Part shown: one piece after another, positions 6,404 to 40,372 of the stretch
How positions within the stretch are numbered: the stretch's first letter is position 1
Layout of the letters: each line of letters starts with the position of its first letter
Assembly (NCBI GenBank): GCA_032718475.1
Contig: JAUCBJ010007669.1
Span: 1 to 40,372 of the forward strand
DNA from: Nemertoderma westbladi
Taxonomy: Eukaryota > Animalia > Xenacoelomorpha
Reading direction: 5' to 3'
Length of the DNA: 40,372 bases
Program-made: the position numbers and the translations under genes
Notes under the pieces: generated by a model
Told to the model about the DNA's origin: nothing
The model's input: only the letters and a program-made list of their open reading frames with translations
Database searches by the model: none

Positions 6404-6546
6404 CGTATCTTGATTATCGTATCATTGCATTATTACAGTGTCGCTAATCTTTTGTCTACTTAATTCCTATTTGTCAAGTACCATTTATCCCCTTTCTTAT
6501 GTCTATTCAATTCATAGTACCGTACAACCAAAATCAGCCCCTGACA

Positions 6547-8275
6547 TGGATGACAACAGTGCCATTTGCCTCTCCGAAAGCATCCTCAAGCACGATCTGC
6601 CTCACAGATCCGCCAAATCCTTCTCCCTAGCTGGCGTCTCCCTCTCCGAAGATGATATTGCTTCCCTGAACGCCAAAGGTTGGCTCACCGACAATATCAT
6701 TGAAGCGGTAGCCCAATACCACATCAATATCCACCATGCCAGAGATCGAGCGAAGTTTTTCACCACCCATTTCCTTATCAGGTTCCATTCAAGTGGCTTT
6801 CAAGGAGTTATAAACTGGACCAAGCCAAATTTACTCCATATGGAACACCTGCTCTTCCCCATCCGCGTTGGGGGAAACCACTGGACGCTTGCTATCCTAT
6901 CTTTGCATCCACCCACACTCCAAAATTTCGATTCACTGGGGGCCATGGCGATGCAGCCATCGAAATATCAAGTCATGGTTTCTTCTCGAATGCCACTGTC
7001 GCAACTCTCCCTGCTCCACCATTACCATCAAACCACATCTCAAACGAGTTCAATTCAACAATCACCAGTGTGGTGTGTATGTCTCAAGGTTCATCGAGCT
7101 CTGTCTAGAGGGTTCATTAGGTCTCACCCAGATCAATGATGGCACCATCCAGCCCTACAGAGCACATCTCCCGCACCTTGTCTCCAGGAACTCAACCTGC
7201 ATCCCTCTACTCTCTCCGCCCAGACCAACTCAACTCACTGCCGAATCACCCAGCTTCCACCACACCGAGCCCGACTTTGTAACTGGTCCCACCACCAATT
7301 CGCCACTCCAGCCATTTGGCCAATCGATAGGCGAACCCGTAGTCCCTTCCTTTTTTGCTTGCAAGACCTGGAACCTGGCACTAAACACGGCACCACCAGC
7401 GATACTCACTGCAGCCAGTCATCCGATCATACCACCGCCAATTTACACTACTCTCAGCAATCTGGCCAACCGGCCGCTGAATCGTCCACCATTTCATCTA
7501 GCTTTTTTTCTTTTTCTTTTTCTTTCATCATTTCATCAGGATCCAGACACAGTGCTTGTGCAAGATTCCACCACTGAATTACCCAGTAACCAGTCTCCCG
7601 ACATAACCACCACCTATGCACCACCTTGCCAGTCTTCCAATCAATCAACCGACGAACCAGCCCAAACTACTTCCAGTTGGCAAGAACTATGCCCCATCTG
7701 CAACACACCTTTTCGCCGCAAATGGCTGGCTCACTGTAAGTCTTTCCTTGTCAAATCCCATGGTGCTTGTGCCGGGCTAACGAAAAATAACTTTGAGCAA
7801 GACCCAAACATGTCTGAGAACTGGCTCTGCAAGACATGTCGTCATGTCCCCACATCACCCATCCCCCCCCCACCCTTCGGTATTCCATGTCTTTTCTCTC
7901 ACCAAGACCCTTCCACGCATCCCCCAAGGTGCCTGATCAAATGCGTCATCCATTTACGCGAGTCTATGTGAATCAGTGGTCCGGGAGAATACCCCACGAA
8001 CATGGCTTAATCTTTTGGCTTTCCCCTACAGCCTCAGGATCCCACAATCAACGTCCAAGAAGCGTAGAGCCACTAAACCATCAAACCAACAATCCCTAAC
8101 AACCAAGGTCAAAATCCAGCTTGTTGAGTATGTTGAGTTGACCAACGACCCAACCCATCCAGTGTTGCTGGAACCCAGGAAAACCCACCAACGGGCATCT
8201 ACCAACTCGCCCAAATCCGTTGATGAAAAACTCTGTAAGCTCATCTCGACGAAGATAGAAGAAGGGAATGTTTGC
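6547..8275 (+). mobile_element. Truncated, frameshifted non-LTR retrotransposon ORF (CRE-like) with Ulp1/C48 protease and PHD finger; RT not present
   Basis: Ulp1 motifs GWLTDNII, FFTTHF, NHWTL (His), FDSL (Asp) and, after a frameshift near 6940, QFNNHQCG (Cys). PHD-like CPIC...C...HGAC...WLCKTC at about 7690-7840. Then RIPQGA*SNASSIYASLCESVVRENTPRTWLNLLAFP...SLTTKVKIQL...KIEEGNV, which resembles the pre-RT region of CRE-clade elements. Confidence 0.72.
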
Positions 8276-13300: not shown

Positions 13301-14912
13301 TACATGAGAAAAGACGATTGCATGGTGGTCGATTATCGATGAGAACCGTCCTCGTTCTGATGGTGTAAGTATGTTGTCGGGATCGAGTTGGATATCAGAG
13401 GTCGCGGGTGGTTGATTAGGGGTGATGGAGCCGGAACCAGTGTGTGGAGTTATAGGAGCGATGATGAGCTCCGACTCAGAGGGTTCACGAACAGGTGTAA
13501 TGCAGGCAATGTGAGAATGGCGTGGGACCATAATTGGATCTGGTGACTGGTTATAGAGGTCGAACTATAGAGGCGGAACTTAAAGTGCAGTTTGCCACGG
13601 GCAAGGTCGAAGTGGGTTTCTCCGCAGACATGTAGAGTGGATGATCCATCAGCGAGAGATGGTAGTTGTGATGTGTGCGAGTGATTCACGGATCAAGTCA
13701 GCTTCAGCTCCGCAATTGAGAAGGATAACTAACAGTCAGGACCAGTAGTTGGCATGGAGGATGAGTGAATGGATGACTGATACGCGGCGTGAAGAAGGAT
13801 GGGTATAGTCATCATTGGTAACTTCCTCGGAATCATTGATGATGATGATATTGGCGAAACCATTACTGACTTCAGCTTCATCCTGAATGTCAACAATGTT
13901 GGTGCGGACTAGGAAGCGGCGGTCCTGTTCCAGAAGGAACTGGCATGTGCTCAAAAAGTGGCCACCTCGGTACGCTTAGCCTGTGAGCACAGTGGGCAAA
14001 CTTTAATTGGGCGAGGAGTGGATCGACTCGGGGTTGGCCGGTTAACAGGGCGGCGTGGCGGGTACCTCGAGGTTGTAGTACGGAAAGTGCGCACATCAGA
14101 GGCAGTGTTCAACTCCTCCATAAGGGATGGGAGAGGGCCTGGCTGATTTCCGGTTTAATGGTTGCCAGAGTACGGTTCCGGAGTTCGGTTCCGTACTGCT
14201 GCTGAACCAAGCGGGGAAGGTCTGGGTGGAGGAGACGCAGCCAGGTTAATGTGAGGAGATTCTCCAAGGAGGGCGACATTTCTTCGTCGTGGGCAATGGC
14301 TGCACCCATGTGTTGAATACCACAATCGCATGTGAGCAGGTTGTCATCTACGAAGGCTGCGAGGCGTTGGTATAAGTCCTCTGGGCGTTCTTCGTGTTCT
14401 TGGGATATGGTGGCAAAGTCGAGGAAGTGGGACCCGGATGACTGGAAGCCAAAGTGGGCGCAAAGGGCTTGCCACACAAATTGTAAGGAGGTGGCGGAAC
14501 GGACAATAGCCGCACAAGAAATTACTGGTGCGTAGTTGGCTATTTGCCCAAGCATAAGCTCCAAGGCTGCGACCTGCTGGACTGCGGTACGACGGCGAGC
14601 GGCGGGTACGTCGCCTGGGTCGTCTATGAGACCACGTGTAGGCGCTGCTCGGGAGGCTGGTTGGTAGCCATTGGAGAGTTGTTGTTGAAAAACGTGCAAA
14701 TTCGGGATCTAAGGCTAGGCTGTATCGAAGAGTCTGTCGCCAGGCCTCAAATGAAGTCAGGGTCTCTAACTTAGTTAATGGTTGGAGGCGCGGCGTTTTG
14801 AAGGTAGCCAGCATAAGTAGGCTAGGTGTACTTCTGTTGTGGGCCTAGGTGCTGGATAGGTTTATAAACTCATGTGAATGGGGTGTGGGAATAATCACAA
14901 ATGCTGCCACCA
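10397..14912 (-). mobile_element. Decayed Gypsy-superfamily retrotransposon internal region (gag, protease, RT, RNase H, integrase) with many frameshifts
   Basis: Gag [19 protein letters not shown] (from 14814); degenerate protease LNCGAE near 13710; RT DLTSAFYQIP, AMGMPGS, KIADD; RNase H VTDAAS, CEIEALAIA; integrase LHLELQHP, VDPGSGF, AEHGIRELE. Candidate PBS TGGTGGCAGC at 14903-14912 resembles a tRNA-Leu 3' complement. Confidence 0.9.
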
Positions 14913-22319: not shown

Positions 22320-23361
22320 GTACCATTGCTATTTAAAGGCGCAGGTTAGTAAAGGTGCAAGTTACAGAGGCGTGACAGGGGATTCAAAACAATTATTAAC
22401 GAAAGTTAACACATGAGTAGTAGGAGAAGAAGTGTCCCCACCATAGTCCTCCCTCTCTTGGGCTATGGGCATTCCATTCGGAGGCCTTTAAAAAATGCCA
22501 AATTCCGGTGCTAAATTGCGGTGCGCGCCATATGTCACCATCGGCAGTTGCCATCAACCAATTGTAGCGTAGCCTAACCTCGCGATGCCCGCCTTACTCG
22601 ACTACTGACTAACTAACCCTAATGTTATTCACCTTTTCGCCATGTTACCACCACCACCGCCATGCTACCACCACTGTATACTGTATATGGTGACGACAAC
22701 GACGACGTGGCCATCTACACGCATCACTCATATACCCTCCCTCGATATTATATATTATATTATATCGATTGCCAACTCCTCGACTGCTGTCGCCAAACCA
22801 ACAAACCAACCAACCAGCCAGTATGATACATGAAATTCCGCCACGCATCAACTACACGTTCTCACATTTCCATAGTAGTTACTCATCCTAACCGATCCCT
22901 CAGCATCTGTGCCATATTGAAAGGCTACTACTAACATTATACTGTGCGTTTTTATTATAATTATTGATTAGTATTACACACAACCCTATGTTTCATATTA
23001 TTTCACGTATTTCCTATCCACGCAACCATTCATCCACATTGCAACCCATCTCTTTTCTTATTCGTCGATGATTATGCCACATCCCATCTCTTCTACGTTG
23101 ATCATGCCACATCCACATCACGTATTCAGAAACTTATATATAACTGAATGTTTTTGTTAAAATTCATCACTTGTAATCTTCATGGTAATATATTGATACC
23201 ATATCTAATTTTTTGTTCTCACTCTGAAATTGTGTTATTTCCTTAATAATTTCTTCATTATCTTACTCGTTGTATATTCATTGGTCGGAAACACTCGAAT
23301 AAATGATACTGATTCCCACATTGGGTTTCTAAACGTAATTATGTAACTCAAAGGAAATCTC

Positions 23362-23443
23362 GTTTGGATGTGAGGGAGAATTTTTAGTATCGATGAATGA
23401 ATATTTATTCATCGATACTATAAATTCTTCCTTACATCCAAAC
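23362..23443. repeat. 82-bp near-perfect palindrome upstream of the PC4-like ORF
   Basis: gtttggatgtgagggagaatttttagtatcgatgaatgaat / atttattcatcgatactataaattcttccttacatccaaac, with four deviations. Confidence 0.92.
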
Positions 23444-23538
23444 ACAATTTTAGAGTGAGAACTATGGTGTCAATTTATTACAGCGATACGGTTAAAAATT
23501 TATCACTTGTAATATTTTTCGTATTTATTATTATTATT

Positions 23539-24555
23539 ATGGCCTTAACGCAAAAAACTGGAGCAACAAATAGCTGGAAATTTACTTACAATAAATATAC
23601 TTGTACCGCCGTTCACAGCAAGTATTTTATTGTGGAATCTCAGGAGGACAACGAATCAATTTGTTTTTCCCATCAAGATACCCGCTATTTGCTAGACATT
23701 CTAGAAACAACAACCAACAACCAACATCAATCCAGACCAGCAATTATACCAGGTAGGATATATGCCGCTCTTCGTTTTGCGCGGGGAAATTTGAATATTT
23801 CTATCAACCCCACATCGGGTGATGTTTACGTTCAGAAACAAGGCAAATGTAAAGTCCTCAACAAAGCTTTTACTGAAGTTCTAATTCAATACAGAGGGAA
23901 ATTATTGCAATTTCTCTCTCCACCGCTAGAGATTATTAGCGATCAATTCTACATTGAATTATCAAATCCAGAGTTTATTGGATTTGTAACAGCTTTTAAA
24001 GGAACCAACTATGTTGGCTTATGGAAAATCAGCGTCAGATACGCTGATAGTGTTGGTTTTAACTATTATACGGGTTTCAATTTGTCAAATCAGGAACTAA
24101 CCGTTTTGTTGCGAGAGTGGGACACTCAAATTGATGAACCAGACAAGCATCTTTTTGATAAAAATATCATTCAATTATCAGACCGTCTCAAAATGATTAA
24201 AACCAATAATAATAAAATTATTATCACCAACACCGATAATTCTACTGAAGTAGGAGCAGGTGGAAATTCTATTGAGTTGCATTACTTGAATGATAAAGCC
24301 CATATTAGTTTTCTCAAAGAGGCTATGGATGGCGTTTCTCTTATTGAAGCCAATGTAGATGGTTTTGTCCTTTTGGATAAACCTAAAGCATTCGTAGAGA
24401 TCCCATCACCTAATCCGGATGTTGAAGAGAGTTGCTCTCAACCGCAACAGGTCTTTCCTGAAATATTACCTCGGAAGCCAAGATCATATCGAGTAAATTT
24501 ACCAACGCATCACCTGCAAAGAAACAGAAAGTTGCTGTTAACCCAGCTCCAGTAG
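23539..24555 (+). CDS. Polinton-associated protein with a PC4/Sub1-like ssDNA-binding motif; C-terminus probably frameshifted and split by the Gypsy insertion (tail at 30097-30141)
   Basis: Likely ATG at 23539. GFVTAFKGTNYVGLWKI...TGFNLSNQELTVL resembles the PC4 pattern VxxFxGxxYVxIR...GIxLxxxQ. An alternative frame reads SPAKKQKVAVNPAPVDP|VTNSPWKPDYYPNM* across the insertion site. Confidence 0.55.
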   Translation: MALTQKTGATNSWKFTYNKYTCTAVHSKYFIVESQEDNESICFSHQDTRYLLDILETTTNNQHQSRPAIIPGRIYAALRFARGNLNISINPTSGDVYVQKQGKCKVLNKAFTEVLIQYRGKLLQFLSPPLEIISDQFYIELSNPEFIGFVTAFKGTNYVGLWKISVRYADSVGFNYYTGFNLSNQELTVLLREWDTQIDEPDKHLFDKNIIQLSDRLKMIKTNNNKIIITNTDNSTEVGAGGNSIELHYLNDKAHISFLKEAMDGVSLIEANVDGFVLLDKPKAFVEIPSPNPDVEESCSQPQQVFPEILPRKPRSYRVNLPTHHLQRNRKLLLTQLQ

Positions 24556-24560
24556 ATCCA

Positions 24561-27500
24561 TGTTAGATTATGTATTGTTAGGGCTCTAGTAGACCCTGGC
24601 TTGGTGGTGGTTAGATCCAACCTACTGGTCTTTTACCTACCGGTCCTCTTCTGGTATTCCGGTATTCAGTCTTTCCTATCTTCTAGGTCTGTAGGTACAG
24701 TAACCGTTACCGGTACCTACTGTACTGCTGTACTGATGTGCTGTAAGGTGGTGGGTGTGTTCGTTGGTCTGTTGGTTCATATTATTGTTTGATATGCTGT
24801 TCTGTATGTCGACCATTAATAAACTGATGCAGCTGGTATTCATTTATTTCCGATCCCAATATGGCGCAGTGATGTACTTGATGTTCCTACAACCCTATTC
24901 AAATGGTGGACATTCCAGCGCATTCAGCAGGTCAGATAATTCAATATTATTCTACCGGTCGCCTCTACTGATTCTGATCTAGGCCTAGCTACCTACCTAT
25001 ACTTCCGGTGGTGTACCTACTCCAGTACTCTTCTAAACTAAGCCCTTGGGACGGACAGTGGAGTGGCTCGCGGTTATCGTTGTCGTTGTGTAGCTACATC
25101 GTTGGCGAAAAACACAGCGACGACGGTACATCGGCGCTGAGGACCTTGCACTGTCCGGGGGCCGTGAGGGGTAGGCAGCGACGCCCGCTAGCCTAATTAG
25201 AAACTACCGGTACCTATTCACATTCAGCAGTCAGGCGGTATTCCAGTCTGCCAGTATTCGATAACTACAGATTTTGGCTGATTTGCATGCAAAAGTTTTG
25301 CACATTTTTGCAAAATTTTTTCTTTTCGGATTTTGCAAATTTTTTCGGATATTTAATTTCCTGAAATTTCTCTAATATTCAACAGTCAGATATGCCTACT
25401 AAAGCTGAACTCGAAACCGAACTGGAGGCTTTAAGAGAACAGTTGGCTGGTCGTGGTAATCCTGATCCCACCTCAGCTCTTCTACATGCTTTAGTTAAAT
25501 CACAACGCGATTTGGCTGATTCCTTAGCACAATCCCAAGCCCAAAATGCCCATCAATTTCAACAATTACTTGGTCAACCACATCAACCTGTAGTTCATCA
25601 GGCTGACTCAACCCCTCGTAATCTTCAAATTAAAGCACCAATTGCTTTAGAACCGGATTTCAGTTTAGCAAAATTTGAAACTTGGAAGTCGGTTTGGGCG
25701 GATTATTATTCTGCATTTCAGATGGATAGAATGGCTAGGGATAGGCAAATCTGTATTTTCAGGAGTTACCTTTCTATAGGTATGCGCTCTACACTGGAAC
25801 AAGTTATTGACATTCCTCCTGACACACATGATAATCCTTTAACAGTTCAGGTGTTAATAGATTGTATTCAAAGTTATTTTCGTGGTAAACGGAATATAGC
25901 CCTTGATTGTGTTCAGTTTGATAATAGGAAACAACGTCAAAGTGAAAATTTTGATAGCTACCTGGTTGCTATTAAAGATCTTGCTCGAGATGCTGATCTA
26001 TGTCGTCATTGTTTCGATCGGCGGTTGACTACTCGAATTATGTCTGGTATTTCTTGCGAGGACACCAGATCTAAACTTCTTGCATTGACTCCATTTCCTT
26101 CGCTTGAAGATGCTGTAAATCTATGTAGGTCTGAGGAATCAGCCCAAGCTGGAGTTCAGGATTTAAAAAACCCTTCAATCAACCAAGCTTCTCGACAATC
26201 TCGTTTTCACAACAAAAAGCCCTATAATTCCAGGCGCAACAATTCTTCTAAATCCAATTCCAGAAACAATTCTTCAACTACTGGCCCTATAGTTTGTTAT
26301 GGTTGTGGTAAAACAGACCATAAACGCGCTGACTGTCCAGCAAGGAACAAAGATTGTTCTTATTGTGGCAAGGAAGGCCACTTTGCCAATGTTTGTCGGT
26401 CTAAACAAAATAATTCGAATTCATCTTCAAAACCTAAGACAAAACCCATTAGCCGCATCACCCTCAATTTGGTTGGAAGCCATAATCGACAAGCTCCAAA
26501 AGTATTTCTGAACTTCTGTCATATCGCAACAGGACATTTATTCGGTTCTCTCAAAGCAACTCCAGATACTGGTGCTGAGGCCACTGTTGCCGGCTTAGAT
26601 TTTCTTCAGGCCCTTTCTATTGACAAAGAAAATTTACTTCCACCAGACCATGATGATCTTTCTGCTGCTAATGGTAGTCTTCTTTCATGCATTGGTCTCC
26701 TCCACACCACAATTTCCTATGGTGAATATTCAACTGATGAGCTTATCTGCATTTGTGAAGAAGTCAATGGAATTCTTTTGGCATGGTATACTTGTCAAAA
26801 CCTAGGAATTATTTCAAGTTCATATCCAGAACCAGTGGCAGAAATTCAGTCTGTTGCTTCTTCTAATTCTTCTAATATGTCACCAATTGGTATTAAAAAC
26901 TCAATTCCAACAACATCATTCAAGGTTGACTTCCATCTTTCTGATGAACCTTCTCCTTCAGAATGGGATACTGTTAAGCAGAAACTCATAAAAGCTTATT
27001 CTGATGTTTTTGACCAAGATGACAAACTTCGTCCAATGAATGGCCCACCCATGACCATTTCATTAAAAGATGATGCCCAACCATATGCTATTCATACAGC
27101 CAGGCAACTTCCTTTAGCCATTAGAGACTGGGCTAAAGCTCGCTTAGAGAAAATGGTTGAACAAGGTATTATTTGTCCAGTTCTGGATAACGAACCAACT
27201 GATTGGGTCCATCCTCTTGTTGTAGTTCCTAAACCAACAGGCGGTTGGCGCCTTTGTGTTGATTTGACTAAACTAAACAAACATGTTAAACGTCCGTATC
27301 ATCCATCGGTTACTCCTCGTGAGGCTGTCAATTCGATTTCTCCATCAGATTGCTTCTTTTCTTCATTAGATGCCAAGGATGGATATTGGCAGATACCTCT
27401 TGATGAATCCAGTCAGAATTTAACAACATTCATTTCCCCTTGGGGTCGATTCAAGTTTCTTAGGAATCCCATGGGATTAACTTCAGCACAAGATGTGTTT

Positions 27501-30091
27501 TGTCTTCGTGGTGATATAGCTTTACAGGGATTGGAAGGCATTGCTAAAGTAGTTGATGACATTCTAATTCATTCTTCCGATAGTCACAGTCATCTCGCAC
27601 ATATTATTGCCGTTCTGGATCGGTGTCGTGAACACCAGATCAGTCTCAAAGCTGCGAAATTCAAATTAGCTACCCCTGAGGTGTGCTTCGCAGGATATAT
27701 AATTAGTAGTAATGGTATTCAAGCGAATCCTTCCAAACTTAATGCTATTGCTGACTTTCCTGTTCCGACCAACATTTCTGAACTTAGATCTTTCTTGGGT
27801 CTTGTGAACCAACTAGGTGAGTTCACTTCCTCTATTAGCGAAAAGGCAGGCCCTCTTCGGGACCTTCTTAAAGTTAAAAATGTCTTCTGTTGGTCAGAAC
27901 CCCAAGAGACTGCATTTCAAGCAGTTAAGAAAGCTCTTGTAAGTCCTCCAATTCTACCTCCATATGATCCATTGCTGCCTACAATGTTGCAGACAGATGC
28001 TTCACGTTTGAAGGGTCTTGGTTTCTCACTTCTTCAGAAACACGACAGCTTTTGGAAACTCATTCAGTGCGGTTCAAGATTCATAACTGACACTGAATCA
28101 CGTTACGCAATGATAGAGCTTGAACTGTTAGCCGTCGTATGGGCTACTAGGAAGTGTAAGGTGTATCTTATGGGTCTCCCATCATTTGAGTTGGTAATTG
28201 ACCATAAACCTCTTCTTCCTATCCTAAACAATTATACTTTGGATATGATAGACAATCCCCGAATCCAACGTCTTAAAGAGAAACTCACCCTTTATTTCTT
28301 CAATACAACATGGAGAAAGGGAAGTGAACATTCCATTCCAGACGCACTTTCCCGTGCCCCTGTTTCGGATCCTACTCCAGAGGATATTCTTTGTGATACA
28401 GATGTCAATGACCATGTTTCCGCAGTCATTCGTCACGTGTCTACCTCAATTGTTGTTTCTGATGCTCCAAGTCATCTCAAGGATTCATATATTGAGTCTA
28501 TCCGATCATCTGCAAAGGATGATATTTCTTACATGGCTTTGGTGGATGCTGTTATTTCTGGATTTCCCTCAACATCCACACAATGTTCTGTGCACATACG
28601 CCCATTCTGGAATGTGCGACATCAGTTATCTTGTGAAGATAATCTTCTTTTATTAGGTTCCCGGATTGTAATTCCATCTTCCCTCCGCAAGAATGTCCTG
28701 AAGCACCTTCATGATGCTCATCAGGGCATTGAACGTTCTAAGAGGAGAGCTAGGCAAACTGTATTCTGGCCTGGTATCAATAGCGATATTACAAACATAG
28801 TCAATTCTTGTCCCCAGTGTCAACTTTATCAACCAAGTTTACCTAAAGAGTCTCTCCAAAGCGACCCTCATCCATGTCTTCCAATGGAGGATTGCTCTGC
28901 TGATCTTTTCTACTTCAGCACCTGGTCATACCTGGTTTATGTCGATAGATATTCTGGGTGGCCATGCGTTCATTCTTGGCGTGCCGATCCTTCCAGCTCT
29001 CAAGTTATTTCAGCTCTTCGAGGATGGTTCAAAGATTTCGGTATTCCAAAACGCCTTCGTTCTGATGGTGGTACACAATTTAATTCAGCACGTTATCATG
29101 ATTTCTTATCCGAATGGAATATCATCCCTGAGTATTCTACTCCTGAGTATCCTCAGTCTAATGGCCATGCAGAGGGGGCTGTAAAGGCCATGAAATCATT
29201 GATAAAAAAGTTAGATGTCAAAGGAGATCTAAACTCTACTTGCTTTGTTCGTGGTTTGCTGGAATGGAGAAATACTCCTAAAGAACATGGTATGTCTCCA
29301 GCTCAACTGTTGTTCGGTAGATCCCTCCGTTCTACTATACCAGCTCATTCGTCCACACTGGCAGGTGATTCATTCCCTATCCCTGGTCCTTCAACGTCTT
29401 CAGCAACTGAATCATATTATAATGATCATGCTCACGACTTAACCCCGATTCCTATTGGTTCCCGAGTTTGCATCCAGAGTGCACATTCCAAACTATGGAA
29501 CAAATCTGGTATCGTCCTTTCCCGTGGTACTAGGCGAGATTACCGGATAGAACTAGACAATGGTCGGGTGTATTGGAGAAATCGTCGTTATCTACGTTCC
29601 ATCCCAGATGACTCTTCTCTTCGTGATATAACGCCTCAAAAACAGGTACAGTTCGCTGATGATCTTCCCAGGCGCAGTTCGAGAACTCACAAGCAACCAG
29701 CAAGATTCGGAGTTCAATGAACTGACTTATTGGTGGTGGTTGGATTTTTTTTTTCAGTACAAATGTCTCCTACATTGTTCTTGGGGGAGATGTTAGATTA
29801 TGTATTGTTAGGGCTCTAGTAGACCCTGGCTTGGTGGTGGTTAGATCCAACCTACTGGTCTTTTACCTACCGGTCCTCTTCTGGTATTCCGGTATTCAGT
29901 CTTTCCTATCTTCTAGGTCTGTAGGTACAGTAACCGTTACCGGTACCTACTGTACTGCTGTACTGATGTGCTGTAAGGTGGTGGGTGTGTTCGTTGGTCT
30001 GTTGGTTCATATTATTGTTTGATATGCTGTTCTGTATGTCGACCATTAATAAACTGATGCAGCTGGTATTCATTTATTTCCGATCCCAATA
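24561..30091 (+). mobile_element. Full-length, apparently intact Gypsy (Mag-like) LTR retrotransposon
   Basis: 301-bp LTRs at 24561-24861 and 29791-30091, identical by eye; 5-bp TSD atcca at 24556-24560 and 30092-30096; PBS TGGCGCAGT at 24862; PPT GGGGGAGA before the 3' LTR. Confidence 0.97.
25392..29720 (+). CDS. Gag-Pol polyprotein, 1442 aa, single open frame
   Basis: Two CCHC knuckles, protease PDTGAE, RT (LDAKDGYWQIP, VVDD), RNase H (QTDAS, IELELLA), integrase (LHDAHQG, CPQC, SDGG, SNGHAE). Confidence 0.97.
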   Translation: MPTKAELETELEALREQLAGRGNPDPTSALLHALVKSQRDLADSLAQSQAQNAHQFQQLLGQPHQPVVHQADSTPRNLQIKAPIALEPDFSLAKFETWKSVWADYYSAFQMDRMARDRQICIFRSYLSIGMRSTLEQVIDIPPDTHDNPLTVQVLIDCIQSYFRGKRNIALDCVQFDNRKQRQSENFDSYLVAIKDLARDADLCRHCFDRRLTTRIMSGISCEDTRSKLLALTPFPSLEDAVNLCRSEESAQAGVQDLKNPSINQASRQSRFHNKKPYNSRRNNSSKSNSRNNSSTTGPIVCYGCGKTDHKRADCPARNKDCSYCGKEGHFANVCRSKQNNSNSSSKPKTKPISRITLNLVGSHNRQAPKVFLNFCHIATGHLFGSLKATPDTGAEATVAGLDFLQALSIDKENLLPPDHDDLSAANGSLLSCIGLLHTTISYGEYSTDELICICEEVNGILLAWYTCQNLGIISSSYPEPVAEIQSVASSNSSNMSPIGIKNSIPTTSFKVDFHLSDEPSPSEWDTVKQKLIKAYSDVFDQDDKLRPMNGPPMTISLKDDAQPYAIHTARQLPLAIRDWAKARLEKMVEQGIICPVLDNEPTDWVHPLVVVPKPTGGWRLCVDLTKLNKHVKRPYHPSVTPREAVNSISPSDCFFSSLDAKDGYWQIPLDESSQNLTTFISPWGRFKFLRNPMGLTSAQDVFCLRGDIALQGLEGIAKVVDDILIHSSDSHSHLAHIIAVLDRCREHQISLKAAKFKLATPEVCFAGYIISSNGIQANPSKLNAIADFPVPTNISELRSFLGLVNQLGEFTSSISEKAGPLRDLLKVKNVFCWSEPQETAFQAVKKALVSPPILPPYDPLLPTMLQTDASRLKGLGFSLLQKHDSFWKLIQCGSRFITDTESRYAMIELELLAVVWATRKCKVYLMGLPSFELVIDHKPLLPILNNYTLDMIDNPRIQRLKEKLTLYFFNTTWRKGSEHSIPDALSRAPVSDPTPEDILCDTDVNDHVSAVIRHVSTSIVVSDAPSHLKDSYIESIRSSAKDDISYMALVDAVISGFPSTSTQCSVHIRPFWNVRHQLSCEDNLLLLGSRIVIPSSLRKNVLKHLHDAHQGIERSKRRARQTVFWPGINSDITNIVNSCPQCQLYQPSLPKESLQSDPHPCLPMEDCSADLFYFSTWSYLVYVDRYSGWPCVHSWRADPSSSQVISALRGWFKDFGIPKRLRSDGGTQFNSARYHDFLSEWNIIPEYSTPEYPQSNGHAEGAVKAMKSLIKKLDVKGDLNSTCFVRGLLEWRNTPKEHGMSPAQLLFGRSLRSTIPAHSSTLAGDSFPIPGPSTSSATESYYNDHAHDLTPIPIGSRVCIQSAHSKLWNKSGIVLSRGTRRDYRIELDNGRVYWRNRRYLRSIPDDSSLRDITPQKQVQFADDLPRRSSRTHKQPARFGVQ

Positions 30092-30296
30092 ATCCAGTTA
30101 CTAATTCTCCATGGAAACCAGATTATTATCCTAACATGTAAACCTGATCATAAGTTAAACTCTTTGAGGTTTCCAATACCCATAGGCGATTGGTGATTGG
30201 TGTTTGGTGATTGGTTTAAAATTATTTCACTCGCTAGCATTAAATGTTTAGATATAGTCAATATTTTATCATTTTTATTTTATCATTTTATCATAT

Positions 30297-32384
30297 GATC
30301 ATTCACATATTACAGGTAAATATATTGCGGCAGCCTGTAATAGTTGTAACCGAAGTTTATCATTGAAACAATACCTGTATGTACTTTGCGGGCATAATTC
30401 CAGTAATTATGATATACATTGTATATTACAAACCGGATTTAGAGATAAGAAATACACAGATTGGGATATAAGGGTTATACCGAGAAATACAGAACGATAT
30501 ATTTCAGTGAGTGCATTTATCCCAATTAAATACACTTCTAAAAAAATTGAGTTACGTTTCTTAGACACATATCAATTTTTAAGCTTTTCTTTAAGTAATT
30601 TAGTTGAGTGTTCAACAAAGGATGTAGCGAGTCATGATATAAGCTCAATTTTACCTATTACTCTACAAGAAATTAAATATTTTTATCCAAACTTGAATAA
30701 CTCAACAATTAAACGGAAAGGAGTATTTCCATACGAGTACTTGACAGATATAAATAAATTTAATGATACTGGTTTGCCGTCTATAAATAATTTTTTTAGT
30801 AACTTAAGTCAAAAAACATGCACAATTGAAGATTATAGGTTTGCGGAATTATCATGGGTACAATTCGACTGTGTGAATCTCAAAGATTATCTTTTAGCCT
30901 ATTTAAAACTCGATGTTTGTTTGCTTGCTGATATATTTGAGAATTTTAGGAATGTTTGTAAACAAAATTACGATTTAGAAGCGGTTTTTTACTGTAGTAT
31001 CGCGTCATTTACCTATGATTGCGCACTAAAATATAATAAATGTAAAATAGAATTAATAAAGGATTATCAGACATATAGAGATTTTGAAAAATCAATTAGG
31101 GGTGGTGTTTCATTTTGTCGAAAGCATTATATAGAATCAAATATACCAGGAACAAGTACATATGATTCTACTAAGGAAGAATGCCATATTTTTAATATTG
31201 ATTTCAACTCTTTATATTCTGGGAATTTAAGTAAAAAACTACCCACCTCACAATTCAAAGAAGTAAGTATTAAACATTTAGAGAATGCAATTCCAGAAAA
31301 ACTAATCGAGTACTTGGTAGATTTAGACATTGATGGATCTACTGGATATTTTTTAATATGTGATTTAAATTATCCCAAAGCTATTCACGATCAAACATTA
31401 CAATTACCGTTAGCTCCAGAGCATTTAAGTATAAATGAATCAATGCTTTCACCTTATATGAGGGAACAATTTAATAACTTATTGATACAAAGAGGTACCT
31501 CCCGTAAATATAAGATGCCTATGCCAAAACTCTTGCTGACGCAATTTGATAAAGAGTTTTATCATTTAAATTTGAAACTGTTAAAATTTTATATAAAACA
31601 TGGATTAATTGTTACTAAACTACATAAATTATATTCTTTTCAACAAGAATTTGTATTTAAAAATTACATAGATTTTAATATTAATCAAAGGCGACTAGCA
31701 AAAAGTTACATTGAAACAGCTGTCGCGAAATTGCTTAATAATTCGTTATTTGGTAAATCAATAGAAAAGATAAGAGATCGATGTAACTTTCGTATCACAA
31801 ATAGCAATAATAAATGCGACCAATTGGTAAATCGTATTAATCATGAACAATTTATAATATACAATAATACATTATCGGGACATTTATTAGTGAAAGACTC
31901 TGTAACTCTCGATAAGCCTATATTTATTGGTAGCACTGTGTTGGACTTGGCTAAATTGGATATGTATGAGCTGTTCTACAATAAATTGCTACCTATTGAG
32001 AAAGAATTAAACTGCCGTATTGAAATTGCTGCATCAGATACAGACTCTTTAATAGGTTGTTACTATAATACATCGCAGAATAATTTTTTAAAAGCATTAA
32101 TTAAAAATAATATGTTAGATACATCCAATTACCCTAAGGATCACCCTCTCTACAGCGATAAAAATAAATCGAGACTTTATTACTGTAAAGATGAACTAGC
32201 TTCATGTGAAATTAAACAAGCAGTATTTTTAAGACCAAAATTATATTCAATTTTGGAATGGAATAACAAAAATATTCGTAGAGCAAAAGGTATTACAAGA
32301 GTTGTTGTGGAAACGAATATTACACATGAAGAATATTTAAAAGCATATAACTCAAATGAAGAAATAAAAAAAACATACACAGAT
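30297..32384 (+). pseudogene. Protein-primed family B DNA polymerase (Polinton-type), N-terminally truncated and interrupted by BEL/Pao
   Basis: In-frame DHSHITGKYIAAACNSCN from 30297, then GHNSSNYD (Exo II), RKGVFPYEY, YLKLDV (Exo III), IRGG, DFNSLY (A), KLLNNSLFGK (B), DTDS (C), LRPKLY and AKG. Confidence 0.95.
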
Positions 32385-35300
32385 TAAATGTGTTGACGCC
32401 TCGGTCTAAGTTTGTAAATGTTTTTGGGTTCGTAATATGATGACGGATATTAAGAAATATAAAATGAATGAGTTGATGATAATAAGACATAGTTTAATAT
32501 TTTATAATAATAATTGACGATCGCACTCTCATTACACTCCTAATGTATATCATAATGCTACCTAATTGATAATAATATCCTATAAAAAAGCTACGATATT
32601 TTATACTACTATATTTTATTATAATATGTTTCATGTGCCTATCACAGAAAGTTATATCCAATAGGATTTCATACACTGGGTGAAAAGTAAGGAACAGAAA
32701 ATGATTGAGGATTCACATCAAACTTATAACTCTCAATAACTACAGTAAGAAACTGGCTAAATTAATCGTGCATAGAGATAATGATTCCTGTCCTAAGGTA
32801 GACTAAAAATGTTGTACAGTAAGCAGCATTACAAATGACAGGTCGTGATTGACATATTATTCATGCTGAGTCTACATGTGCTTCATGTTTACATATCGAA
32901 TAATAATAAATAAAAAACGCATCTGAAATAACATGTGCCAAGGGGCAATTCATGCATGTCTTCTAATCTCGGGAAAATATGTCAAATAATTTTGGTGTTA
33001 CATGGTCACAAACGTTCTACCGTTAACATAGCCACCCCTCTCAACCAGAGCCATTTTGGGCCCTTTCTAAAAGGCACAGCTTAACTGTAGGACGTATCAA
33101 CGATTTGGAAGCAGCAGTACGGATTTCAACCATGCGTACTCTGCCATCCTTTCCAGGTAGAGCTCGTACGACTCTGGCTAATGGCCAGTGTCCTCTCGGT
33201 AAGTGCCCGTCAACTACCAGAACGAGATCGCCGATAGCAAGATTACGACGTTCCCTATTCCAAATAGCTCTCACTGTTAATGTGGGTAGGTATTCCCTTT
33301 GGAAACGGTTCCAAAAGTGGTCGGTAAGCAATTGGCATTGGCGCCAACGCTTACGTAGCAACATATCACCATCGTTGAATTCACCGGGTGATGCATTCTC
33401 ATAACTTTGTCCAATAAGGAAGTGACTCGGCGACAATGCATTAAAGTCATCAATACTATCGCTGACTGGAGAAATGGGTCGCGAGTTGAGAATGGCTTCA
33501 ATTTCTGTCAACACGGTATAGAGTGTATCATCATGGACACACTGCTTCATGATTGTGGCACGTAAAGATTGTTTCACTGTGCGCACCAAGCGTTCCCATG
33601 AACCACCAAAGTGTGGTGAAAGTGGTGGGATTCTTGTCCATGAGATATTGAGGTGCGCCAGGGTGCTACGTATCGCGCCGTGATCGATGGCATTGAGGGC
33701 TTCCCGCAGCTCTCTTTCGGCGGCAATAAAGTTGGTTCCGTTATCAGAATGAATAACAGATGGATATCCCCTTCGAGATATGAAACGACGAAGTGCCATA
33801 ATAAAGGCATCTGCATTTAGATTATAGGCAACTTCTAAATGAACCGCGCGAGTTGTCAAACAGGTAAATAAACATACCCAACGTTTTTCTCTGCATCTTC
33901 CTCTCTTAACTGCTATAGGTCCGAGATAATCTAGACCTGTCTCAAAAAAGGCCGGTTTCAGTACTGCCAATCGACAAGAGGGTAGGTCTGCCATATACGG
34001 AGGTGCAGCCCTTGCGTTGCTTCTACGGCACACTACACACTTGTCAATAACAGAACGAACTGCGGCTTTACCTCTGGTGATCCAGACGTTTTCCCTTAAT
34101 GACGCCAATACATGATGTGGTCCTTGGTGGGCTAATTTGCTATGGGTTGACCAGATCATGATCTTCGAGAGAGCATCATTATGACTCAGTATTGCTGGGT
34201 GTTTAGTAGCAATTGGTAGATCTGAATTGCCCAGTCGTCCACCCACTCTCAAAATACCCGCTTTGTCAATGAATGGGTTGAGTGGCACAAGTGGACTATC
34301 TCTTTGTAGAGGTCGGCCTGCGTTTAATGCACTAATTTCTGCAGACCATGTCTTCTCTTGCTGCAAGCGAATGGCTAACATTCCTGCCTGATCCAATTCG
34401 GTGGCTGATGGGTCAGCCACCCCTAGTGGCATCGTCGGATGTTCCTTGCGCTGCCGGAAGCGCCGAACCCATCCTAAACATCTGGCTATGCACCCACATA
34501 ATCGATTCCAATTGGAGAATCGACTAAAGTCAATAAGTGTTGTTGTGTTACTTTCTACTATTGTAGCAGCAATAACTACAGATTTCTTAAGTTCACAGTC
34601 TTCGTTATGAACGGGCTCTGAACTGCTTTGTGAGGGCCAGCTTGCCTCAGGTTCCCACAGGAAATCTGGCCCTTGAAACCAGCGATCTGACATGGTTGCC
34701 GATGAAAGCGATAAACCTCGTGTCGGATCATCCGCTGGATTTTGTGAACTAGATATGTGATGCCATTGAGATACGTCACTGTGGTCATGTATCTCTGCTA
34801 CGCGGTTTGCTACGAATGGTGTGAATCTGCGAGATTCACTTCCAATGTACTGTAATGCCGTTTTAGAATCAGTCCAATAGAAACGCTGAGAAATTGGTAA
34901 TTCGATCTCTGATTGGATTAAATTCGCGACTCGAACACCCATTACACAGGCTTGGAGTTCCTTGCGAGGAACTGATATAGTGCGCAAGGGGGCTAGACGA
35001 GATTTTCCCATAATGAGGCAGCATTTAACTTGCCCATTTTCATCAACAGCTCTGAGATATCCATCCAAAAGCAACGTCAGAAGCATCACAAAATATATGA
35101 AGTTGGAGTGACGCAATGTATTGTTGAGAAGGAAAATAAACCCGAGGGAGTTTAATATTTTCTACGTAGGTGAGATCGTTTAACCACCTTAACCACACAC
35201 TCAGTAGCTCTGTTGGTATGAGATCGTCCCATCCAACTCCTATCCGCCACAACTCTTGTATGACTAATTTAGCTGGTAATATGAACGGCGTTAATAATCC

Positions 35301-38300
35301 CAATGGATCAAAAATTGAGCTAGTTATCAAAAGTATTTTTCTTTTAGTGAAATGGGAACTGTCTTTACTCGATGCGACAGTTGTGAATGAAATAACATCT
35401 TCATTCGCATCCCACTGAACACCAAGAGCACGTTGCGTGGGGAGTCCATCGCAATCTAAATTAACAATGGATCGTGTGAGTTCGGTAGAAGGTATCGAAG
35501 TAAGAACTTCACGTGAATTACTCACGAATTTAGTAAGGCGAAATCCCCTGTTGTTCAGCATAGCAATAAGTTGGCTTAACAATTTAATTGCTACGGTGGT
35601 CGAAGTCACAGACGTCAGTAAATCATCCGAATAAAAGTCTCGTATAACCGTAGCTACAGTTAGTGCATCAAATGAAGAAGCTTGATCGGTAGCAGCACGT
35701 CGCAATCCCGTGATTGCACATGTTTGAGAGGAAACAGCGCCAAAGATATGGCGAGTCATCTCATAAACATTTGGCGGGTCGACTCTATTGTCTCCTCGCC
35801 ATAGAAACCGCAAAGCGGGTCGGTCACTCTCTTGAACGCCCACTTGGTGATACATAGCCTCTATATCACCAATAATAGCAACTAAATGTTGACGAAATCT
35901 CAACAAAATTCCGATAAGGCTATTCAATAAGTCAGGTCCGGTCAATAACTGATCATTTAACGATGTGCCACTGTACTTTGCAGCGGCATCGAAAACTACT
36001 CTAAGTTTTCCAGGCTTGTTTGATTGGGTTACCCCATGGTGGGGTAAATACCAAGTTACTTTAGATGGAATCAGTGACTCCTCTTTTGTTAGCTTACGGG
36101 CAAACCCTTTGGATTCGTATCCATCTATTATTTCAGTATAGCGTTTAGCTAAATCATGGTCTTTGTCTAATTTCTTCTCAAGGGATAAAAGTCTATGAGT
36201 AGCCATGGGGGTGTTGTCTGGAAGACGTGGTGCATCACGTCTCCAGGGCAACCCCATCTCATAACGACCATCAACGAACTTGATCGTTCGTTCAATGATT
36301 TGTAAGGCTCTTGTGTCTTCGACTGATCGAGAAGCACAAGAATCATGAGTAGTACCAAATGCATCAGTACGCCAAAACATCTCGAGACGTTTGTCAAGTC
36401 TATCTGTTTCAGAAACAGTGGTCGTATAAACAACCAATTCGTCATTTTTAGACGTGGTAGTTTGAGATCTTCCTAAAAGATACCAGCCCAGTGCCGAACA
36501 GTGCGCTTGGGGTTGTCCTGATGCACCCACATGTCTTTCAGCAGTATTCAGAGCATCAGGTACATTGGCCCCAATAACTACTGCTACATCTGGTAGTTCA
36601 TTGCAGGATAAATCAAGGCCCTGCAAATATTCAAATTGACTATCATTGCTATCAAAGGCGAATGATCGGGATGGTGCATTCATTGAAGGAAGCACGTATG
36701 CTTCATCAACATAGAAAATTGTGTTATATGGATGATGCCCTGATATGGAAAAGTAAACACGCTTTCGTTTTTGGTCTCCACTTTTTCCAATCAGGCCGTT
36801 TAATTTTATACATTTAATTTCCCCATCTAAATTGAGTGCATCAGCGATATCCTTACGTATGAAGGAGGTCTCACTGCATGCAACAAGAAGGGCATGAGTA
36901 TTAAGAGTTTCACCGTTGGGAGAAATAATCTTAATAGGCACAGTAGGTAAAAACACAGATGTTTCGTTATTTGTTGTAGTATTACAACTTACGTGCTTGG
37001 AATCTTGCCTGTGTGATTTAAAATAGTCATGCAATAGCGTGTGGTGTCGCTGATTGCAGTTAGACACATGACAAGAATGAATTGATGAACATTTAGATGC
37101 GTGATGATTCTGTTTGAGACAGTTGGTGCAAAGAGCATTGTCTAACGCTACTTTCCCCTTATTATCGGGTGTCATGCCAATAAATTTTGAACACCTATAT
37201 ATTAAATGGGATCCATTGCAAACCAAACATATATCACTAATATGTCCTGATGTTTCATTGGGTAAGCCTTTTGATACCGTTGGTTTGAACTGAGATATGT
37301 AATTTTGCCGTGAATCTGGCTTTGTTGTTTTATTAGATTCAGTAATAACTGAAGAAGCGTAATTTGATATTAACGGCGCTGGCTGTCTGAATGGAACCGA
37401 TTTTTGAACAACATTGCGGGGGTATTTAGATTCGGTTTAGATTTGGCATTAGATGCTGAACTCCAATCCTCTATTGGCATAACTGAAGGTTCAAAAGTAA
37501 CCTTTACTCTTTGCCTCAGCCATTCTTCAAAATGTACCAAGGTCGGTTCTTCCCTTGGTCTGATACGCTGACAAGTTTCGCACCAACGTTCTCTTAAACG
37601 AAAAGGGAGTCTATTATATGCACCGCGTAATATATCCGCGTAATATAAACACTCTCTAAACGTCCCATACGTTTTAAGGTATGCACCCCTACGGTAACGG
37701 ATATTGAAAATGTTCTTAGAGCTGACTTATTGTCAGCAGGAACCATTGAGCCGGATGTTATTGAGGAGGTGAAGGCCCTCACGATTAGGCTAGGGTGTGC
37801 AAACTGCTCTTTGAGCATTTGCAGTGCAACCGCATATGCCTTCCCATCGGAACCTAAACCTTTTACCACCTCTCTAGCATCAGCACTCAAGTGGTTCAAT
37901 AGTTGTGCCATGCGCCGGTTATCATCATTATAAATTTTATTATGCACATGTGTGTAAAAATTACTTATAAAGTCCGGCCATTTTAAAGGATTTCCATCAA
38001 ATTTAATAATGGCAATGGGAGGTATTCCTCGATCCTCTTCCAATCGCAATAGCGACCTCTCTAATGAAGCATTAGGGGTGATTGTATGTAGAAATGTTTC
38101 TTCGTAAGGGATTAGTCTATCCACCCAGGCATCCACAGGCTCCTGGGGTGTATGAAATTGCTTGTTAACGAAACCAGGAAAATCGCTTATTTCATCTTTG
38201 TTCTCACTAGGAAACATAATCGGCGCGGGTTTGGGTATAAATACTGGCCGAGTAGGATCCAAAACAGGTTGATTGAATGTGGAAAGTTTAGGCCTATTAA

Positions 38301-39754
38301 CGTTAGATGCACTCACCAAAAGCGGATTTGTGGATGTGTCCATATGGGGTGCATTATAATTCATAAGTGGTGATATTTCAGCACCCGCTGTATTTTTTCG
38401 CATTACGGTATTGGCATGGCAATAACTAACCGATGTTGAAGTCGATGTGACAAGTTGATTTGGAAGAATTGAAGTCGGGTGTTGATTTAACTCGGGTTCT
38501 TGTATGGGTTCCTGTTGCAGGAGTACATTACCAGGTTCAGTTGATCCACGGGAAACCGGGTGGTCGGTAGAATGTACGGAGACTTCATCATCAAAGTCAT
38601 GAAGTCTTGTTTCGAGATTTTCATCACCCTCTTCGACGTCTTCTATTAGTAGCTTTGCCTCCAGGGCTTTCATTGCGGCTTCCTGGTCGGCTTCCAGAGT
38701 CTCAGCATTGGCCTCTACCGTCGCCTTTTCAACTCGCAGTTGGGCTCTCGCTCGAGCCTGATCCGCTGCTAGCTGGGAAAGACGTGCACTTCGTGCAGCA
38801 TGTCTTGCACGTGACGTGATCGTGCATGACGAAGCCGAGTGGGTTTGATGACTCGTTTGTGTTATGTGGCTTCCTAGGGCAGAAATTCCACGAGTAATGG
38901 GAGAATCCAGGGGTAACGATGCAGGTACGAGTTTCGGAGTAGGATCCTGTCCCGTTGAGATCCGTCTTTGAGAGGTTCGTCGCAGGGCAACTCGCCGGCT
39001 GATACCGCCAGGTTCACTCATCTTGAAAGGGTGTTTCAGTAATTATTTGGGAACAAATCCCACAGAGTCATCGTAGTTAGTGGGTTGATGTATCCGGTTC
39101 GAAGGACCAATAAATGTGTTGACGCCTCGGTCTAAGTTTGTAAATGTTTTTGGGTTCGTAATATGATGACGGATATTAAGAAATATAAAATGAATGAGTT
39201 GATGATAATAAGACATAGTTTAATATTTTATAATAATAATTGACGATCGCACTCTCATTACACTCCTAATGTATATCATAATGCTACCTAATTGATAATA
39301 ATATCCTATAAAAAAGCTACGATATTTTATACTACTATATTTTATTATAATATGTTTCATGTGCCTATCACAGAAAGTTATATCCAATAGGATTTCATAC
39401 ACTGGGTGAAAAGTAAGGAACAGAAAATGATTGAGGATTCACATCAAACTTATAACTCTCAATAACTACAGTAAGAAACTGGCTAAATTAATCGTGCATA
39501 GAGATAATGATTCCTGTCCTAAGGTAGACTAAAAATGTTGTACAGTAAGCAGCATTACAAATGACAGGTCGTGATTGACATATTATTCATGCTGAGTCTA
39601 CATGTGCTTCATGTTTACATATCGAATAATAATAAATAAAAAACGCATCTGAAATAACATGTGCCAAGGGGCAATTCATGCATGTCTTCTAATCTCGGGA
39701 AAATATGTCAAATAATTTTGGTGTTACATGGTCACAAACGTTCTACCGTTAACA
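32385..39754 (-). mobile_element. Full-length BEL/Pao LTR retrotransposon with frameshifted gag-pol
   Basis: 644-bp terminal repeats at 32385-33028 and 39111-39754, identical by eye; TSD cagat(t) at 32380 and 39755; PBS TGGTCCTTCGAACCGGAT at 39092-39109; PPT GAGGGGTGGCTA. Confidence 0.97.
33041..39021 (-). pseudogene. BEL/Pao gag-pol in three main ORF pieces (37594-39021, 35043-37226, 33041-35116)
   Basis: Gag FDGNPLKW and CCHC knuckles; RT YLPHHGV, KLRVVFDAAA, FYSDD; RNase H FCDAS; integrase GLDYLGP, SDNGTNF, GGSWERLV. Frame breaks near 37620, 37420 and 35065. Confidence 0.93.
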
Positions 39755-39974
39755 CAGATTTCAATCTAAATTACATCGCATTTATACCTTAAAGCAAAAT
39801 AAATTTGCACTCAGTAGCTTTGATGATAAACTTTATTGGGTTAATAAAAATCAATCACTTCCTTGGGGGCACTATAAAACAAACCTCAAAAAACATATAA
39901 AAATATCAAATATACCAATTTATGAAGAACCAAAAGACGATAGTGTTGATGATGAATTATCAAATAGTAAATAA
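39755..39974 (+). pseudogene. C-terminal segment of the pPolB beyond the BEL insertion
   Basis: RFQSKLHRIYTLKQNKFALSSFDDKLYWVNKNQSLPWGHYK matches the typical Polinton pPolB ending (H.IYT..QNK.ALS.FDDK...LPWGHY). Stop codon at 39972-39974. Confidence 0.9.
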
Positions 39975-40372
39975 AAATATAAGTTGTAAGCAGATCATTT
40001 ATGGACTTAATTTAAAAGAATTAAAAAATCAATTGACTGGTAAAATTGTACTCAAACCTAATCAGTTTAAATATAAGGTATTTGGTGCAACCATATTAAT
40101 GTTTACAAATGGACGAATAACAATTCTCGGTAGAAAATATAATTTTAATAAAGTGAAAAAGCATATATTCGAAAAAACAAACATTAATTTGATTTTTAAA
40201 TCAATCAATTTGTGTACTTATATTTTTAGTATCGATACCGTAATTTATAGGTTACTTATAAACAATATCGGGTTTTATGTTATATTTGATAATGTTAAAC
40301 TAGAAATTTCATACGAGCCCGAAATATTCAATAACTGTAAAGTCAGAATAAATAATATTGTTGTTGTTTGCT
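39949..40372 (+). CDS. TATA-binding protein (TBP)-like ORF, open to the window end
   Basis: Manual translation gives 141 stop-free codons: MMNYQIVNKNISC...LNLKEL...ATILMFTNGRITILG...FKSINL...SYEPEIFNN.... These match TBP repeat motifs (TALIFSSGKMVCTG, SYEPELF). The ORF overlaps the pPolB end by 26 nt. Confidence 0.82.
   Translation, partial: MMNYQIVNKNISCKQIIYGLNLKELKNQLTGKIVLKPNQFKYKVFGATILMFTNGRITILGRKYNFNKVKKHIFEKTNINLIFKSINLCTYIFSIDTVIYRLLINNIGFYVIFDNVKLEISYEPEIFNNCKVRINNIVVVC

Follow-up and report, generated by a model that had tools for sequence, protein, structure and literature searches.

Does the mobile element at the right edge of this stretch of Nemertoderma westbladi DNA (40,372 nucleotides of contig JAUCBJ010007669.1; hereafter the window) encode a TATA-binding protein (TBP) of its own and, if so, which promoters and partners would such a protein serve? 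The frame in question is free of stops from 39,901 to the last base of the window, and from the ATG at 39,949, from which residues are counted here, it comprises 141 whole codons with an open 3′ end. Two further ATGs are candidates (39,922 and 39,952), and a purine at −3 is found only at 39,952. The start at 39,949 lies 26 nt inside the end of a gene for a protein-primed family B polymerase (pPolB), whose TAA stop (39,972–39,974) is in a different frame; starting at 39,922 would extend this overlap to 53 nt and add nine residues. In 20,000 shuffles of the 450-nt stretch, no frame ever stayed open for at least 140 codons. The original prediction had described a stop-free frame carrying ATILMFTNGRITILG (40,087–40,131, residues 47–61) and SYEPEIF (40,309–40,329, residues 121–127) and overlapping the polymerase end by 26 nt, and this is what the sequence contains. 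It had also remarked that the gene is missing from the ORF track, which is most likely explained by the frame running off the window, and that it has no N-terminal extension: nine residues at most precede the saddle. A C-terminal extension is possible past base 40,372, where the expected last 35–40 or so residues (fourth Phe, second FxxG motif and last helix) also lie.

Profile comparisons identify the encoded protein as a relative of TBP. Among 24,736 Pfam models, TBP (PF00352) was the best match to the ORF (21.7 bits, E = 1.9e-4), in the Pfam search proposed with the original prediction; the score of this partial protein lies slightly below the gathering cut-off of 22.9 bits. Profiles built from 70 cellular-type TBPs, from 36 TBPs of viral contigs and from the 106 sequences pooled gave the ORF 13.9, 15.1 and 16.7 bits, respectively, the best of 5,000 shuffles reaching 13.0, 10.5 and 10.6 bits; with the cellular-type profile, the ORF ranked top of the 683 frames of the window. 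A profile of a single TBP lobe (86 proteins) matched the N-terminal and the C-terminal half of the ORF separately (Table 1), and one of 5,000 shuffles scored higher than the C half, for which alone this control was run. Comparison with TBP by hhalign returned 74% over 111 columns. The distance between the lobes, taken from F52 to Y122, is 70 residues (69–71 in 69 reference TBPs). Identity to cellular TBP amounts to 18–29%, and strand 1 and helix 1 of the second lobe align poorly. An internal repeat between residues 38–51 and 128–141 (ungapped score 12, next best 6, without shuffle control) is only suggestive. The claim that the frame holds signature segments of both TBP repeats is thus upheld, by a lobe match in each half and by canonical spacing, with the second lobe seen in part.

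Structure prediction, likewise proposed as a check, contributed little. AlphaFold2 reached a pLDDT of 31 without an alignment and of 56 on a TBP alignment, the latter model being circular as a test of the fold. With this alignment-based model, the first 26 listed rows of a Foldseek search were TBPs (E = 3e-3 at best), and TBPs held the two best rows of a VIA fold search (Z 6.2 and 6.0) with HMA domains tied at 5.6; EBV BcRF1 appeared weakly in a fold search of the ORF model, at rank 12 (E = 0.09). TBPs thus head the fold searches weakly, on models of low pLDDT. The parts of the first lobe are strand 1 with N8, helix 1, a shortened strand-2/stirrup segment, strands 3–5 with F52, and a short helix 2.

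Direct sequence homologues did not turn up. Searches of 5.8 billion and 1.84 billion proteins returned no real one: none of 13 candidates was confirmed in the first, and the single match in the second, a 445-residue repeat protein, was judged spurious. A PDB sequence search produced four weak matches to ribosomal S15 and no TBP. Pattern stretches of the ORF were confirmed in 0 of 6 and 0 of 113 cases in viral and metagenome contigs, and none of 283 stretches was confirmed with a two-sequence alignment of the ORF and the relative L036 (see below) as query. The ORF matched neither a plasmid nor any NCBIfam or PHROG family. When viral contigs were scanned for its motifs, five and three loci emerged, none of them TBP-like, and Pfam TBP occurred in none of the seven viral records searched.

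The ORF belongs to a nested assemblage of elements (Table 1). Directly upstream of it lies the C-terminal tail of pPolB, which matches the pPolB end of L036 with E = 4e-12 and whose stop is overlapped by AATAAA at 39,970–39,975. The original prediction was therefore right about the identity of this “pPolB end”, which is, however, a tail severed from its body and out of frame: a 7.4-kb BEL/Pao retrotransposon separates the two parts, which lie in different frames in this copy. Because pPolB is broken in this way, the window copy is likely inactive, and because BEL/Pao elements are typical of animals, the whole likely represents an animal Polinton/Maverick that is dead in this copy. The best homologues of the pPolB body include many of about 1,100–1,180 residues and many with PF02945; 250 homologues have an E-value of at most 1e-10 and several of them carry PF03175 or PF02945; the window protein has no PF03175 match of its own. 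The N-terminal part of pPolB that is known from relatives is missing, the gene beginning abruptly at the EndoVII motif about 170–200 nt past the end of a Gypsy-type retrotransposon (30,092–30,298). Loose contig ends reveal that the sequence preceding pPolB differs in other copies, so the window copy seems to be internally deleted there. Both LTR retrotransposons have identical LTRs, are very recent and are nested in this one Polinton copy, the Gypsy element as one 1,442-residue gag-pol ORF and the BEL element as three ORF pieces.

Table 1. Positions in the window of the TBP-like ORF, its parts and the element that carries it.
Feature	Position	Strand	Evidence or remark
Candidate left Polinton end, AGTAGT start	22416..22445	+	Depth already high in bin 22400–22999
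Element ORF without known family	23476..24555	+	PC4/SSB-like by eye only
Gypsy-type LTR retrotransposon within element	24561..30091	+	ATCCA target-site duplication
pPolB body, begins at endonuclease-VII-like motif	30258..32384	+	Best homologues 34–39% identical
BEL/Pao LTR retrotransposon within pPolB	32385..39754	−	644-nt LTRs, 0 mismatches; CAGAT target-site duplication
pPolB C-terminal tail, 72 codons + stop	39756..39974	+	49% identity over 41 residues to L036 pPolB end
Two TATAAAA words in pPolB tail (39873, 39896)	39873..39902	+	Weak post hoc candidate promoter
TBP-like ORF	39949..40372	+	Pfam TBP match, own profiles, hhalign; open 3′ end
First TBP lobe, residues 4–77	39958..40179	+	Lobe profile 14.8 bits; AlphaFold2 secondary structure (partly circular); ungapped L036 match
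LKPNQF, probable shortened first stirrup	40051..40068	+	F40–F52 spacing; Leu in L036
Second-lobe stirrup SYEPEIF and following strands, cut by window end	40309..40372	+	C half 7.8 bits; spacing

Other members of the family lack the two insertions. Contigs from public runs (X1, X4 and X5) join across the BEL insertion, and the Gypsy insertion is likewise joined across. The summed contig depth in X1 is about 200,000 for the TBP ORF, similar to pPolB, and about 200–370 for the BEL body; over the contigs on 22,400–40,372 the ORF is some 600–1,000 times deeper than the BEL body, neither figure being a copy number. Hundreds of element contigs are found in DNA runs of three studies, far deeper than the inserted retroelements (again not a measure of copy number). 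The depth contrast and the contigs joining across the insertions show that the element is a many-copy family, with other members free of them.

On the left, AGTAGT, which we take to be a Polinton terminus motif, occurs 18 times in the window, and the one at 22,416 is thus a candidate end only. A 48-bp inverted repeat without loop (85% complementary, 23,355–23,450) lies just upstream of the first ORF of the element. This ORF has no Pfam, NCBIfam, PDB or homologue match and two weak PHROG matches of unassigned function; its read-contig depth is as high as that of pPolB, with many copies differing near the 3′ end. By eye, its strand-strand-helix repeats resemble the PC4/Whirly pattern, and it is perhaps a single-strand DNA-binding protein. 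Genes for integrase, packaging ATPase, protease and capsid are not in the window's part of the element and are expected past 40,372; the right end of the Polinton lies outside the window.

Elsewhere in the window, an uninterrupted 208-residue ORF (249–875) matches GMP-PDE delta of the UNC119 type (E = 2e-67) and is an intronless host gene or a retrocopy, an Ulp1-type protease fragment (PF02902, E = 4e-7) lies beside a matchless 367-residue ORF at 6,438–7,971, possibly as part of another transposon, and a further fragmented RT/RNase H element occupies 10,453–14,814 on the reverse strand.

Whether related elements carry such a gene was addressed in 112 pPolB loci (32 viral and the best 80 of 506 metagenomic ones), 34 of which are at least 10 kb long. 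One of them, L036, has a TBP-like gene; given how short the loci are, the other 111 do not show its absence. A TBP-free reading of all 112 (best E for L036 0.036–0.14) was overturned by inspection of the recurring weak match in L036. This locus is a 23-kb Polinton-like metagenome contig with genes for a 1,615-residue EndoVII pPolB (36% identical to that of the window), KilA-N and PLA2. Its TBP-like ORF (L036:13,662–13,895, 78 residues) is cut by the locus end, lies 5.5 kb downstream of pPolB and matches Pfam TBP with E = 0.0043. It aligns without gaps to 36 residues of the window ORF (26–61; 33% identity, pair E = 8e-6), sharing K36, P37, Q39, K43, T48, F52, N54, G55 and G61 and having Leu in place of F40. 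From this alignment, the shortening of the first stirrup appears to be common to two distant elements. In the viral loci that bear a TBP, no pPolB was convincing within 8 kb, where the sole candidate was a weak match of 17 bits. Among viral proteins, two of 566 residues (L115:869–2566 and L122:2584–4281) have a divergent TBP-like region at the N terminus and a long basic C-terminal part, and about 40 viral contigs (L251–L292), many of 30–370 kb, encode near-canonical TBPs of roughly 180–250 residues.

The copies also allow selection to be estimated, as had been suggested. Variants were listed at a level of at least 5 in 100 in four runs of three studies, a small sample drawn from contigs. In the non-overlapping part of the ORF, synonymous changes account for 7 of the 12 variants and synonymous sites for 19% of all sites (pN/pS about 0.17; binomial p = 0.003). 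The other five variants alter the protein (T30N, F74L, E119Q, S121T and E123D), and no frameshifting indel is listed. By this mostly synonymous variation, the protein is under purifying selection among copies. With two lobe matches, the spacing between them, purifying selection, the Polinton context and L036, we regard the proposal of a minimal virus-encoded TBP as supported; the ORF is real and, on sequence grounds, a Polinton-encoded TBP relative whose C terminus is incomplete in the window.

How far this protein would still act on DNA and TFIIB as TBP does depends on its two stirrups and its DNA face. F99, F190 and the remaining DNA-face positions of TBP are given their usual roles here; yeast numbers were assigned via L120 + 57 and PDB 1rm1. 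The original prediction had noted that the first repeat reads LKPNQF instead of YNPKRF. YNPKRF is indeed missing, but LKPNQF is probably not its degenerate form. The two Phe of the first lobe are 17 residues apart in 69 of the 70 cellular-type TBPs and in 31 of the 36 from viral contigs, whereas F40 and F52 are 12 apart; as, in addition, strand 3 of the alignment-based model begins at F40 and L036 has Leu there, F40 probably lies buried in strand 3 and is not a DNA-wedging Phe. MAFFT, HMMER and hhalign place it as the first wedging Phe, a placement we rejected on the spacing and the Leu of L036. Two registers are possible for F40, the yeast V102 or M104 site. The strand-2/stirrup segment is likely shorter by 4–5 residues, and the yeast F99 site likely lost along with it.

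Of the four wedging Phe, those at the F116 and F190 sites are kept (F52 and F127), F99 is likely lost, and F207 corresponds to the codon that the window end splits, whose first base, the final T of the window, is compatible with Phe and no more. N8, T48, L50, F52 and F127 are kept on the DNA face; in yeast terms, N69, T112, L114 and F116 are retained in the first lobe, and Y185-E186-P187-E188 and F190 in the second. E123 and E125 of the second stirrup correspond to the acidic TFIIB-contact sites and are kept, the variant E123D still being acidic, and the polar or basic residues of the DNA face include N10, K41, R56 and K131. Altered DNA specificity, as originally proposed, is plausible from this mapping, its basis having shifted from the LKPNQF motif to the shortened segment and the likely loss of the F99 site. 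The available text of PMC7221094 describes F116 as the key and most conserved DNA residue of TBP, the two stirrup glutamates as TFIIB contacts whose conservation among viral TBPs is only about 40%, and a basic patch of the N lobe as the place where TFIIA, TAF1, Brf and Mot1 all bind; viral TBPs are said there to be without this regulator surface.

Since the DNA face is partly kept, the TFIIB stirrup host-like and the first lobe remodelled, we favour, at somewhat better than even confidence, the reading that the ORF is the Polinton's own promoter-recognition factor, with altered specificity and using host TFIIB and Pol II. Such a factor would bind an AT-rich promoter word specific to the element and draw TFIIB and RNA polymerase II of the host to its later genes. 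Loss of the first wedging Phe and gain of N10, K41, R56 and K131 would move specificity off the host TATA box, and the remodelled first lobe with its short helix 2 would weaken binding of host TFIIA, TAF1 and Mot1, so that the protein may escape host control while retaining TFIIB docking through E123 and E125. Its place beside pPolB would make the gene an early one, with late genes (capsid, packaging) as its targets. This function would belong to active members of the family, not to the window copy. Two TATAAAA words 76 and 53 nt before the ATG at 39,949 (at least two occur in 0.6% of shuffles, for a zone chosen afterwards) together with the AATAAA are a hint that the ORF has an early transcript of its own under a host-type promoter. 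The 160 nt preceding the L036 gene showed no TATAAAA-type word, and TAAGA occurs neither in the left part of the element nor in the TBP region. Counting against the use of host TFIIB, the available text of PMC7221094 makes the case that the partner of most viral TBPs is a viral TFIIB. More tentatively, and short of an even chance in our estimate, the lineage of Polintons with EndoVII–pPolB may have evolved a minimal, asymmetric TBP with first stirrup and wedging Phe deleted, as in the distant L036, and the TFIIB stirrup still host-like. Much like a sigma factor, this one protein would switch the host's TFIIB and Pol II to a promoter word of the element's own, beyond the reach of TFIIA, TAF1 and Mot1, and at high copy it could rewire host promoters.

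Other functions can be read from the same features. The original prediction had raised the possibility of a decoy, which would shut off the host by binding its TFIIB or idling on its promoters, lowering host transcription and leaving viral promoters undirected. A best-conserved motif that is the TFIIB stirrup YEPEIF, with an E123D in many copies that stays acidic, would suit this, as would the altered first wedging Phe site and several altered DNA-face residues. Yet a pure sponge would need neither N8, T48, L50, F52 and F127 nor the basic DNA-face residues, all of which are kept; L036 retains T48, F52 and K43, and toxicity would be ill-suited to a many-copy endogenous family. Given the DNA-face residues kept, a decoy is less favoured, and we consider it unlikely. 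We give still less credence to the ORF being half of a private viral pair, with a TFIIB-like partner encoded elsewhere in the element past the window. Nearly all TBP-bearing viruses also encode TFIIB according to the available text of PMC7221094; the stirrup glutamates of the ORF, however, are host-like, and no TFIIB-like gene was found among the scanned ORFs of L036 and of the window's part of the element, both of which are incomplete.

A use apart from transcription, as a repurposed minor-groove DNA bender in replication, integration or packaging at AT-rich terminal repeats or a hairpin, strikes us as improbable. The overlap with the polymerase gene in the window and the 48-bp hairpin of the element fit this idea, but in L036 the gene is about 5.5 kb away from pPolB, and a bender would have no reason to keep the TFIIB stirrup. 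Least probable of all, in our judgement, is that there is no working TBP here and that the likeness is due to chance or to a decayed host TBP/TRF retrocopy within the element. The Pfam score below threshold, the lack of any sequence homologue among 5.8 billion or 1.84 billion proteins and the weak structure models are what such a relic would lead one to expect; two lobes at canonical spacing, purifying selection, a third-position GC like that of pPolB (0.23 versus 0.22) and an independent relative, L036, with the same deletion all argue against it.

Viral TBPs are already known from large DNA viruses and herpesviruses. The ORF shares with cellular TBP (PF00352; PDB 1rm1, 1cdw and 1mp9) the tandem lobes, their spacing and the yeast sites listed above, and differs from it by having no N-terminal extension, a first-stirrup segment 4–5 residues shorter with the F99 site probably lost, a shorter helix 2 and FNN in place of FPG after the second stirrup. 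Large-virus TBPs are often accompanied by a viral RNA polymerase. The TBPs of Nucleocytoviricota and poxviruses, in the available text of PMC7221094, keep the F116-type residue and are missing the N-lobe regulator signatures, as does the ORF; unlike it, they usually come with a viral TFIIB, and 31 of our 36 TBPs from viral contigs keep the 17-residue spacing. In animal TRF2/TBPL1, likewise a relative of TBP, the DNA face is changed and the promoter preference is another, but its N-lobe F116 site is occupied by Trp (PMC7221094, available text), where the ORF, itself part of a mobile element, keeps Phe. The beta- and gamma-herpesvirus mimics of TBP (KSHV ORF24, EBV BcRF1) also have a changed DNA face; the available part of PMC12529657 presents KSHV ORF24 as a viral TBP mimic that serves late promoters together with host Pol II and, in a section heading, calls its model incompatible with TFIIB binding. 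ORF24 is large, has several domains and is part of a complex of six proteins, whereas the window protein is probably a bare saddle with a TFIIB stirrup; the extra Pol II-binding and DNA-binding domains of herpesvirus vTBPs (ORF24/BcRF1/UL87) have no counterpart in the nine residues, at most, before the saddle.

Closest in setting are the MELD viruses with adintovirus-like PolB, for which the legend of Fig 5 in Starrett et al. 2021 (PMC8502044; preprint 10.1101/697771) labels a TBP gene: like the window element, they would combine a TBP-like gene with a mid-sized pPolB genome without its own RNA polymerase. That TBP is a legend label in a section on non-animal datasets, with no analysis in the available text or in the one supplement file searched. 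TBP is mentioned for mirusvirus-related elements in the available part of PMC10675990; by term look-up in the available parts of PMC11161782, PMC10748475 and 10.64898/2026.10.13.758929, neither TBP nor TATA is mentioned, and PMC12220804 gave an author-name match only. Within the literature so covered, the MELD legend is the sole label of a TBP in Polinton-like elements; supplements of preprints, figures and subscription journals may hold annotations. What is new here is the first-stirrup deletion common to two distant elements together with a kept TFIIB stirrup.

For Polintons, a self-encoded TBP makes gene expression and any virus-like early-to-late programme testable through a single small protein, its predicted promoter word and its predicted host partner. 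Such a protein would rank among the smallest viral transcription switches and would be a natural test of which parts of TBP, here one stirrup and one Phe, can be removed with function kept.
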